Origin: a virus
IMG/VR virus record: IMGVR_UViG_3300036770_006434
Span: 96,001-160,000 of that record
Length of the DNA: 64,000 bases
Reading direction: 5' to 3' (one strand)
The notes beneath the pieces were generated by a model. That model had not been told where the DNA came from, did not search any database, and saw nothing but the letters and a program-made list of their open reading frames with translations. Below, in pieces: positions 6,720 to 8,068 of this stretch. The position numbers were made by a program, and so were the translations under genes. Each line of letters begins with the position of its first letter. Positions within the stretch are counted from its first letter, which is position 1.

Positions 6720-7361
6720 TCACCACTTGCAATACCAAGCCGCGACCCACAGGCGTTTGAGCCACCAATGAATAAGTTCGCCTAATGAGCGCAGTTTCAG
6801 GATGCGGCTATTGGCGGGAAAGGCGATGTCGGGAGAGCATCCCGTCAGAATCGTGCGGATAGGGGAGTTCACCCTCCCGAGGATAATCGTCAAGGGGCGG
6901 TCGGAAACGTGGCTTAGGTGGGAGAGGTCTAAGGAGTGGACGGGCGCAGAGGATTGGTCTGACCACTCGCCCAGCGAAACGTCGGCTTTTGTGCCCGTAG
7001 ATTCAACTTCTCCCTTGAGTGTTAGCTCGTGGCTACCTCCCTTGATCTTGAACACGTATTCGCCCTCGTTACCGGCGACCCCAAAGCGTCCCTCAAGGCA
7101 GCAGTAGCACGTAGTGTTGTTGCAATCCACGGCGGCTTCCTTGCCTTGGGCGACCCTGAGATTGGGAAGGTCTGTATAGGTGCGACCGGAGAGTTTCAGG
7201 ATCGCGTCCCATGCCTTGGGGTCGGTCGGAACGAGGTCGTTCATCGGAGCGCCGGGCTCAGCCGGGGTTTCCCGGTCTGTGCCGGCGAACCAGATGATGC
7301 TGTCCACGTTATAGGACAGGTAGTTGGCGTCTTTCTCGGCGGTGCGGATGGGGGTGATCAT
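6720..7361 (-). CDS. Hypothetical protein (possibly beta-helical)
   Basis: 213-aa ORF from ATG 7361, overlapping the upstream stop; alternating beta-strand-like segments. Confidence 0.6.
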   Translation of the reverse strand: MITPIRTAEKDANYLSYNVDSIIWFAGTDRETPAEPGAPMNDLVPTDPKAWDAILKLSGRTYTDLPNLRVAQGKEAAVDCNNTTCYCCLEGRFGVAGNEGEYVFKIKGGSHELTLKGEVESTGTKADVSLGEWSDQSSAPVHSLDLSHLSHVSDRPLTIILGRVNSPIRTILTGCSPDIAFPANSRILKLRSLGELIHWWLKRLWVAAWYCKW

Positions 7362-8068
7362 GAGGTATAGGAGATTACAGGATAACTGGTGCGATAACGG
7401 GGGTCGGTGGACTGCCAACGCAGACAGTGCATGCGTAGAGTCTCGCGCAGTCGGGACATCTCCTCGGGGGTGGACACGATGGTGTTGACGGTCATGCGTG
7501 GACCCGAAGTATTCCCGTAGCCCATCAGTGCGGCAGCGGGGCTAATCCACTGGATGTCCGGCGACGCGGGATCGCAAATACGCGAGCCCTTCTGCGGCTG
7601 GTCACAATGAACGCCCCAGTCATAAAGCATCTGCCAGTTAGGTAACCATGGACGCGTCCGATCATTGGTTACCCAATCGCCGCCAATGCTGTGACTAGGA
7701 GAGGTTTCCCCTTCTCTTTCCAAAAGGTCCGCTAAAATGTAGGCCGGATTAGAGCAGCCGCGCTCTAACTTGAAGGTGCCGTCCCAGTCGCCAAAATACC
7801 GGTATGAGGCGTTTATGCCCGGATGATATCCGTCGCGCGCGATAGCGTCACAATCCTCAACGTAATAGCGATTTGACGGGACCTTGACAGCTAAGCCTTT
7901 GACCAGAACGCCTGTCGGTCCGGGTAGTCCAACGTCCTTAAAATCGGCTATGGGGTCGGACGTGGGCGGGGTCTGATTCACTGCCCTAGCTACCAGCGGT
8001 GCGGCAGCTAAGCTACCGAGTATAGATATGAACTGACGACGTGTAGTGGACGCGATAAGTGTGCTCAT
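7358..8068 (-). CDS. Twin-arginine signal-bearing protein homologous to the core of tail-tip protein gpJ
   Basis: N-terminus 'STTRRQFISILGSLAAAPLVARA'. The body 'KGLAVKVPSN...WDGTFK...SNPAYILADLL...WQMLYDWGVHCDQ...PRMTVN' aligns by eye with the J gene at 42162-47066. AGAGG lies upstream of ATG 8068. Confidence 0.7.
   Translation of the reverse strand: MSTLIASTTRRQFISILGSLAAAPLVARAVNQTPPTSDPIADFKDVGLPGPTGVLVKGLAVKVPSNRYYVEDCDAIARDGYHPGINASYRYFGDWDGTFKLERGCSNPAYILADLLEREGETSPSHSIGGDWVTNDRTRPWLPNWQMLYDWGVHCDQPQKGSRICDPASPDIQWISPAAALMGYGNTSGPRMTVNTIVSTPEEMSRLRETLRMHCLRWQSTDPRYRTSYPVISYTS

Follow-up and report, generated by a model that had tools for sequence, protein, structure and literature searches.

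Why should a phage that encodes a complete hub protein J for its own tail tip also carry, well away from its tail genes, a short protein that repeats one inner piece of J behind what appears to be a signal for export from the cytoplasm? The question is raised by an open reading frame (ORF) at 7358..8068 on the minus strand of a 64,000-nucleotide stretch of viral DNA, here called the window, which comprises bases 96001-160000 of IMG/VR record IMGVR_UViG_3300036770_006434, a complete virus record of 190,671 bp with direct terminal repeats. An original prediction made from the letters of the window had proposed a tail-hub domain repurposed for export by way of twin-arginine translocation (Tat). 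Here we report that the ORF is a complete coding sequence for a protein of 236 amino acids (aa), which belongs to a conserved phage family of short stand-alone proteins, that its homology to a segment of J-type hub proteins is solid by sequence comparison, and that export of the folded protein by the host Tat pathway is highly probable. As to function, the best explanation that we can offer, and we offer it tentatively, is that of a Tat-exported periplasmic hub mimic which would block later lambda-like siphophages at entry.

The stop codon of the gene lies at 7358-7360. Its ATG at 8068 overlaps (ATGA) the stop of an upstream 98-aa ORF, and its own stop overlaps in the same manner the ATG, at 7361, of a downstream 213-aa ORF; the gene is thus part of a dense row of leftward genes (254..13182). 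A start at another ATG, at 8086, would lengthen the protein by six residues, and the N-termini of relatives favour 8068. Four parts can be distinguished in the product, all encoded on the minus strand: a twin-arginine-type signal peptide (residues 1-29; 7982..8068), a poorly conserved Pro/Thr-rich linker (residues 30-54; 7907..7981) whose length varies among relatives (family alignment columns about 40-84), a module homologous to J-type tail-tip proteins (residues 55-211; 7436..7906) and a family-specific C-terminal tail (residues 212-236; 7361..7435). The tail, R-M-H-C-L-x-W-Q-S-T-D-P-R-Y-R-T-S, has no counterpart in J and stands where the Pfam domain Phage-tail_3 starts in J; among members with a letter in the column concerned, W218 is kept in 62/62, D222 in 60/61 and R224 in 60/61. 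The module has in common with J the motifs KVPSNR, Y-x-G-D-W-D-G-T-F-K, NPAYILADL, LYDWG-x-x-CD and PRMTVN, to which VPSGY, WDGTF, NPAWIYYDIL, LYKIAQYCDA and PRFTCN correspond in the phage's own J. All five core motifs quoted in the original prediction were found, in the order that it had given, and its reading of the ORF as a real gene holds on two counts, namely a Tat-type signal (TRRQFI, a hydrophobic stretch and A-R-A) and a body collinear with one J module.

A significant profile match to J, which had been named as a check, was found by several routes. In a single-sequence PHROG scan the protein matched phrog_31 (“central tail fiber J”) over residues 55-204 with an E-value of 1.1e-8, and by BLASTP its residues 95-225 aligned with residues 372-482 of the own J at 24% identity (E 3e-6). 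When a profile of the family was compared with the PDB, all five matches at E<=1 belonged to J-type tail-tip chains, in each case at about residues 235-293 of the chain (9l9p_S, 5e-5; 23gd_D, 0.007; 9e7m, 0.023; lambda 8iyk_J, 0.041; F2-pyocin 25vf_A, 0.048). The family profile was also searched against a library of 1.84 billion (1.84e9) representative proteins with no length filter, which gave 239 matches at E<=1e-3, 56 at E<=1e-10 and 45 at E<=1e-30. The best 54 rows were all of 51-274 aa (about 55 short stand-alone relatives), full-length members scoring at least 98 bits; below a gap in the scores came long proteins of about 700-4000 aa with E-values from 2e-11 to 1e-4, matched at profile positions about 38-207. 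Among the 150 listed rows, 86 were of at least 700 aa, and each of these 86 matched residues 1-700 of the own J at E<=1e-5. FNIII-A_GpJ and Phage-tail_3 were both present in six of six long matches scanned, with the family match falling between the two domains. Alignment of the family with 87 J segments in hhalign reached a probability of 99.7% (E 2.7e-25; 124 columns; query 45-211), a value that is partly circular since this very profile had served to select the J set. The NCBIfam model NF049904 (lambda_TipJ) was matched at E<=1 by 9 of 31 family members, the 236-aa protein itself not being among them, and of the four loci that family peptide patterns found in viral contigs, two are J genes of 1610 and 1897 aa.

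Despite this homology the stand-alone protein is not a J protein, because the defining architecture of J is missing. A Pfam scan of the 236-aa protein gave no match save a sub-threshold one to TAT_signal; FNIII-A_GpJ (PF24801) and the tube-like Phage-tail_3 (PF13550) are absent, in addition to the fibre and receptor-binding parts whose lack had already been pointed out. Lambda gpJ and other TipJ-type proteins (8IYK, 9E7M, 9L9P, 23GD; F2 pyocin 25VF) show the same collinear motifs over about 125-160 residues (VPSN, Y-x-G-x-W-D-G-T-F-K, NPA[WY], LY-x-x-x-x-x-CD and PR-x-T-x-N), but they measure 800-4000 aa and possess FNIII-1/2 besides the domains just named, whereas the stand-alone protein has an export signal, a C-terminal tail of its own and Cys105, and is encoded outside the tail module on the opposite strand. 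No Pfam, NCBIfam or PHROG model is specific to the stand-alone family. The extra cysteine C105, which is not a J feature, is nearly invariant (66/67 members), and a C105-C155 disulfide is possible. The idea of a metal cluster, suggested by the pairing of Tat with conserved cysteines, was discarded for want of ligands (C105 in 66/67, C155 in 61/66 and C215 in only 42/62). The ESM Atlas held no usable match for the 236-aa protein, and fold matches obtained through its model of the homologue P0010 are meaningless (pLDDT 0.34; all TM <=0.33 by query).

The body of the protein is best described as an old, independently evolving copy of one inner J hub module, as far as sequence comparison can tell. 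Its identity to the own J is only 24%, and among 86 J-like proteins likeness to the own J does not correlate with likeness to the family (Spearman -0.10, p 0.37). The separation from J is accordingly an ancient one, and an origin from the phage's own J lineage was rejected. The J-like proteins closest to the family, P0071 (1434 aa) and P0073 (1969 aa), carry N-terminal Hint / PT-HINT domains ahead of FNIII-A_GpJ, which are possibly inteins or a fused upstream protein. On a practical level, the family appears to set a clean and portable domain boundary inside J-type proteins, with about 160 residues that evidently fold alone, which should help both annotation and structural studies of tail tips.

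Which part of J is represented can be seen by comparison with the own J (42162..47066, plus strand; 1634 aa), in which FNIII-A_GpJ occupies residues 124-228, Phage-tail_3 residues 444-605 and Peptidase_S74 the end. The paralogous segment lies between the first two of these domains, at about residues 249-455 (42906..43526, plus strand). Mapped via the own J to lambda J, the VPSN strand falls near residue 245, WDGTF at about 259 and PR-x-T-x-N at about 322-327, and the stand-alone module would correspond to roughly residues 235-340 of lambda J. In the excerpts available of the papers cited here by PMC number, FNIII-A of lambda J is placed at 72-215 and strand beta13 of the HDII-insertion at 216-223 (PMC10721106), and the domains of J follow in the order HDII-ins1 (with ins2 embedded), HDII, N-arm, and HDIV with HDIII and OB (PMC11101478, PMC13455828). 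By this published order the body probably takes in the final strand(s) of the HDII-insertion domain together with the next hub domain, HDII. The family ends where Phage-tail_3 begins in J, and has its own tail of 25 residues there instead. Relative to the consensus of the 86 J-like proteins, the own J carries an insertion of ~80 aa, at residues about 280-360, between the VPSGY strand and WDGTF.

A Tat signal is recognised by its S/T-R-R-x-F-L consensus, by a core of moderate hydrophobicity and by a basic residue ahead of an A-x-A site. The N-terminus of the 236-aa protein, M-S-T-L-I-A-S-T-T-R-R-Q-F-I-S-I-L-G-S-L-A-A-A-P-L-V-A-R-A, reads as it had been written in the original prediction. After a few polar residues at the start come T-R-R-Q-F-I (residues 9-14), a hydrophobic stretch free of charges, a basic c-region residue and A-R-A (27-29), and cleavage is predicted after A29. 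Signal statistics were taken from the 70 family members that score at least 60 bits, 61 of which include the N-terminus. An RR pair occurs within the first 25 residues of 58 of these 61, the fuller pattern [ST]RRxF[LI] in 47/61, and a basic residue among small residues, 12-28 positions after RR, in 46 of the 58; by column, R10 is kept in 61/61 members with letters, R11 in 58/61 and F13 in 59/61. The signal core is moderately hydrophobic across the family, with a mean best 12-residue Kyte-Doolittle score of 1.96. One protein without an apparent signal, P0028, reflects a late gene call, as the DNA of its locus (L003) has a GTG start followed by I-S-R-R-S-F-L. The model TIGR01409 was matched at E<=1 by 14 of 31 members (best 6.8e-4). 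As a control for chance, every stop-to-stop frame of 80 aa or more was taken from the entire genome and was required to show RR-x-[FL]-[LIVM], an uncharged hydrophobic stretch and a start codon within 25 codons; of these 934 frames a single one fitted, ORF 7358..8068. TatA and TatC were not found in the phage genome. The family counts and the genome-wide control bear out the claim of a Tat-type signal, yet the 236-aa protein itself does not reach the curated Tat models, a point to which we return below.

Another ORF that may be relevant to export lies 8 kb to the left of the window. This 160-aa ORF (G000:C1 about 87431-87913; L024:1330-1812, minus strand) has a lipobox, A-L-S-G-C, and the motifs G-S-M, H-R and G-D-N-N, with sub-threshold peptidase matches (TIGR02227, 14.3 bits against 47; PF00717, 16.8 against 23.3) that indicate a weak S24/S26 likeness. 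It is conserved at 46% and 44% in G001 and G002, two related large phages described below, and the putative lipoprotein could process exported phage proteins.

The family is conserved in a manner expected of a working gene. A protein homologue search returned 42 proteins of 169-274 aa, and the family alignment, from which 12 rows (mostly fragments or near-duplicates) were omitted, comprises 31 sequences with 22 invariant columns and a mean column identity of 37%. The full members among the 70 measure 184-274 aa, and the short rows, of 51-178 aa, cover the profile incompletely, missing its N-terminal part, its C-terminal part or both. Since synonymous sites have reached saturation (pS 0.65-0.80; dS undefined in 3/10 pairs), only pN/pS is given; it ranges from 0.46 to 0.70 and is below 1 in all ten pairs. 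The gene is maintained under purifying selection, and on these sequence measures a decaying remnant is excluded because of the pN/pS values, the invariant columns and the uniform length of the members, a picture opposite to the truncated homologues with dN/dS near 1 that the original prediction had named as contrary evidence. At one locus, L006, a 72-aa ORF (545-763, plus strand) with a similar twin-arginine N-terminus, followed by N-N-P-A-W-I-Y-Y-D-L as in J, overlaps by 4 nt the start of a full family gene (L006:760-1416), and looks like a truncated tandem paralogue.

The distribution of the family is phage-only. Members occur in metagenomic phage contigs, including some from groundwater samples by contig name; related loci comprised two family and two J loci in viral contigs and three loci in metagenome contigs. 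No family locus was found in 185,579 species genomes, and the cultured phages of INPHARED gave neither a tblastn match at E<=1e-3 nor a megablast match for window positions 1-20000. None of the eight NCBI-sourced members has a name or accession. The window stretch itself was matched by four DNA runs of one study (subsurface and soil metagenomes), two of which may be its source, and no RNA run was among the listed matches.

How might such a protein act? The module cannot build a tail, because it is without the tube-like (Phage-tail_3) and fibre parts and the phage keeps a normal J. In the scheme that we favour, the host, probably a diderm, would send the protein, folded beforehand, out of its cytoplasm through the Tat pathway, and a cut after A29 would release the mature form. 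Once in the periplasm, the module would show the surface that the virion hub offers to the plug (I-like) or to the C-terminus of the tape measure, and could capture or mis-dock the proteins ejected at tip opening by a later lambda-like siphophage, whether sibling or competitor, or by an F-type tailocin. Channel formation and DNA entry would then be blocked, and superinfection would be excluded by a mimic of the virion's own hub. The available excerpts of the structural studies report that at tip opening the HDII-HDIII module rotates or swings outward, and that gpI and the C-terminal helix of gpH exit the tip (PMC10721106, PMC11101478). Periplasmic interference with the entry apparatus of later lambda-like phages or tailocins is a possibility that we hold with little confidence. 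That a Tat-placed hub mimic intercepting plug and tape-measure proteins constitutes a new class of superinfection exclusion, made from a duplicated and re-addressed virion part, seems to us more doubtful still.

The periplasmic location in this scheme is conditional, because the Verrucomicrobiota-like host is one that we infer. For the 73-aa ORF at 18268-18489 (minus strand), 18 of the best 21 of 79 loci in the 185,579 species genomes were labelled Verrucomicrobiota or its lineages, the best cellular relatives showing 42-60% identity. TatC was above cut-off in all five Verrucomicrobiota genomes that carry the closest relatives of this ORF. These results give a weak hint of a diderm, Verrucomicrobiota-like host with a periplasm.

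HK97 gp15, TP-J34 Ltp and T4 Imm and Sp are reportedly small exported superinfection-exclusion proteins, and to our knowledge proteins of this kind reach the envelope by Sec, as lipoproteins or through a membrane anchor, and have no homology to virion proteins. In contrast, the route here is of the Tat type and the body is a tail-hub module, the exclusion role being proposed from sequence. In logic the protein may be likened to Llp of phage T5, as presented in the available part of PMC9586334: a small non-virion phage protein sent to the envelope, encoded by an accessory gene and plausibly acting on later entry. Both the domain and the signal in the present case are known, and what is new is their combination and the family. 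Searches of full-text literature (subscription journals not covered) turned up no exported tail-hub fragment, no Tat-dependent exclusion protein and no phage-encoded Tat-exported tail-protein fragment, in agreement with the earlier remark that no such case was known. Should export and an action on incoming tails be borne out, phages would have turned a piece of their own injection machine into an envelope weapon or shield; the protein would then also offer a handle on what plug and tape-measure proteins do after a siphophage tip opens, and would join a very short list of Tat substrates encoded by phages.

Several points weigh against this scheme. The function is deduced from sequence only, and the sole stored model of a homologue is that of P0010, with its pLDDT of 0.34. 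With regard to export, three N-termini depart from RR (RK, RAR and RAS), and the 236-aa protein has no TIGR01409 match at E<=1 and scores 12.1 bits against a cut-off of 22.7 for Pfam TAT_signal (PF10518), although these models are very short and the test is accordingly a weak one. The ring-forming domains are named differently in the two lambda papers, as far as the excerpts of PMC10721106 and PMC11101478 go, so the HDII label is our own deduction, and the module may or may not keep the gpI-binding strand(s) of the lambda hub. The host assignment depends on one small gene (18268..18489) only. A leftward sigma70-type promoter ahead of the gene, put forward in the original prediction, could not be affirmed: a scan for sigma70-like promoters gave 16 sites against 13.6 +/- 3.4 expected in shuffles, so that the timing of expression has no promoter support and the argument from promoter class was dropped. 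Neither the gene nor its two neighbours matched any of the 5027 defence models of PADLOC 2023. Lastly, a hub mimic could just as well bind some other component of the envelope.

This last point leads to the strongest rival, in which the exported module acts on the host envelope by binding some component of the periplasm or outer membrane, with receptor masking from inside, envelope or lysis control, or an accessory role in sugar or methyl transfer as the conceivable outcomes. We regard it as possible and about equally likely as interference with incoming phages, and present evidence separates neither from the other. It draws on the same export evidence (RR in 58/61, TIGR01409 in 14/31 and 1/934 frames), and T5 Llp, in the part available of PMC9586334, provides the precedent of a small exported protein of a lytic siphophage that acts on a receptor. 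It is also favoured by the setting of the gene, which both here and in G002 lies inside a glycosyltransferase/methyltransferase cluster. In the window this comprises one glycosyltransferase with a PHROG-level match (11777..12688), two sub-threshold glycosyltransferase matches (9549..10379 and 15165..16307) and four methyltransferases, two FkbM-type and two other (4382..4927, 2813..3526, 1692..2417 and 3508..4110). Several neighbouring ORFs had no match at all, and “sugar and methyl-transfer cluster” is a fair name for a region in which most genes are without assignment. The description of the gene as embedded in a glycosyltransferase cluster accordingly stands for this genome, but the link to the cluster is seen in only two of three complete or near-complete genomes.

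The comparison of genomes speaks against the envelope role. Two related large phages, G001 (205 kb, with terminal repeats) and G002 (219 kb, 96% complete), have one family copy each and a full J that is 50-55% identical to the own J. In G002 the family gene stands in the same cluster, adjoining the homologue of 5960..6709 and with homologues of the genes at 11777, 10727, 9549, 8358 and 6720 upstream. In G001, however, the cluster lies at 116.5-121.6 kb and the family gene at 174.1-174.8 kb, 53 kb away, among unrelated genes (NADAR, DUF4419, kinase-like and adenylosuccinate-synthetase-like). No neighbour is common to all five loci compared, only the family gene itself being shared, and it thus behaves as an independent accessory unit. 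Nor was any carbohydrate-binding or enzymatic family matched in Pfam, PHROG or NCBIfam, and the motifs that are kept are those of all J hubs, with no new site among them.

The same loci were used to look for a conserved partner that might be exported by hitch-hiking on the Tat signal. The 98-aa and 213-aa neighbours with 4-nt overlaps were rejected as candidates, since they are not adjacent to the gene elsewhere. In two loci a small ORF lies upstream of the family gene (L007:6042-6467 and L002:9375-9818, both plus strand); the two share 40% identity over 58 residues (E 3e-7), have no Pfam match and may represent a loosely linked partner or chance. The adenylosuccinate-synthetase-like gene of G001 (L002:13711-15039, plus strand; PF00709, E 4.6e-58), which has the NADAR, DUF4419, kinase-like and AAA genes nearby, could be the sign of a PurA-like phage enzyme engaged in the synthesis of modified bases.

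A second rival accepts the module but reads the N-terminus as a Sec signal or an uncleaved membrane anchor, which would tether the module to the outer face of the cytoplasmic membrane, where exclusion would still be conceivable. The failure of the 236-aa protein to reach the curated Tat models, the three members without the second arginine and the variable linker after the signal, as found in tethered proteins, can all be cited in its support. It is nonetheless rather improbable, as the S/T-R-R-x-F-L consensus, the moderately hydrophobic core (1.96) and the basic residue before A-x-A are conserved family-wide.

Much less probable is the alternative offered in the original prediction, a dominant-negative protein that would act in the cytoplasm and inhibit the tail assembly of competing phages. 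A free hub fragment could poison the assembly of the initiator, Tat substrates fold before export and therefore pass through a cytoplasmic phase, and blockers of tail assembly are known from phages and satellites. According to the excerpts available, these blockers, Tab and Tai, are accessory, cytoplasmic and accompanied by counter-defence partners (PMC10884400, PMC11364771). Compared by description, they are the nearest tail-directed inhibitors, but the stand-alone family has a conserved export signal and no conserved partner gene. The inhibitor is disfavoured because the signal is kept in 58/61 members, the export signal being the most regularly conserved feature besides the J motifs (R10 61/61, R11 58/61, F13 59/61); moreover, the phage's own J-based tail would be poisoned with no evident counter-protein, and PADLOC gave no match.

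It is scarcely credible that the protein, as a piece split off from the hub, serves the phage's own tail, whether as a part of it or in its assembly. Hub domains can indeed be divided among proteins, being spread over gpL, gpI and gpJ in lambda, and over gp13 and gp15 in RcGTA, as against the single pb3 of T5 (available part of PMC10721106). These separate hub modules are, however, virion parts encoded in the tail module, whereas the stand-alone protein is a second copy, predicted to be exported and encoded elsewhere. The own J already contains the module, the export signal is incompatible with tail assembly in the cytoplasm, and the position of the gene varies among relatives. In this genome the gene stands 34 kb to the left of the row of M-, L-, K-, I- and J-like genes and on the opposite strand, the distance to the own J being 34.1 kb, in agreement with the original prediction. 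A decaying remnant of a duplicated J, or a functionless chance ORF, has next to no probability, for all that a truncated-paralogue-like ORF lies directly upstream of the full gene in L006, given 70 members of at least 60 bits, 22 invariant columns, pN/pS below 1 in 10/10 pairs, translational coupling on both sides and retention of the gene in three complete or near-complete genomes.

The tail-tip module of the phage itself is of the lambda type and occupies 38082..47066 on the plus strand, beyond the tape measure gene (31887..38075). Its order is an M-like gene (Phage_min_tail), a GIY-YIG ORF, the L-like gene (Phage_tail_L; 39768..40688, plus strand), a K-like gene (JAB and NlpC/P60), a 256-aa ORF and J. 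The 256-aa ORF (41392..42162, plus strand) had no Pfam match and is taken as I-like from its place in the row. The GIY-YIG ORF (38840-39766, plus strand), which stands between the M-like and L-like genes and encodes 308 aa that include a nuclease domain of the GIY-YIG type, is probably a homing endonuclease gene lodged inside the tail-tip module.

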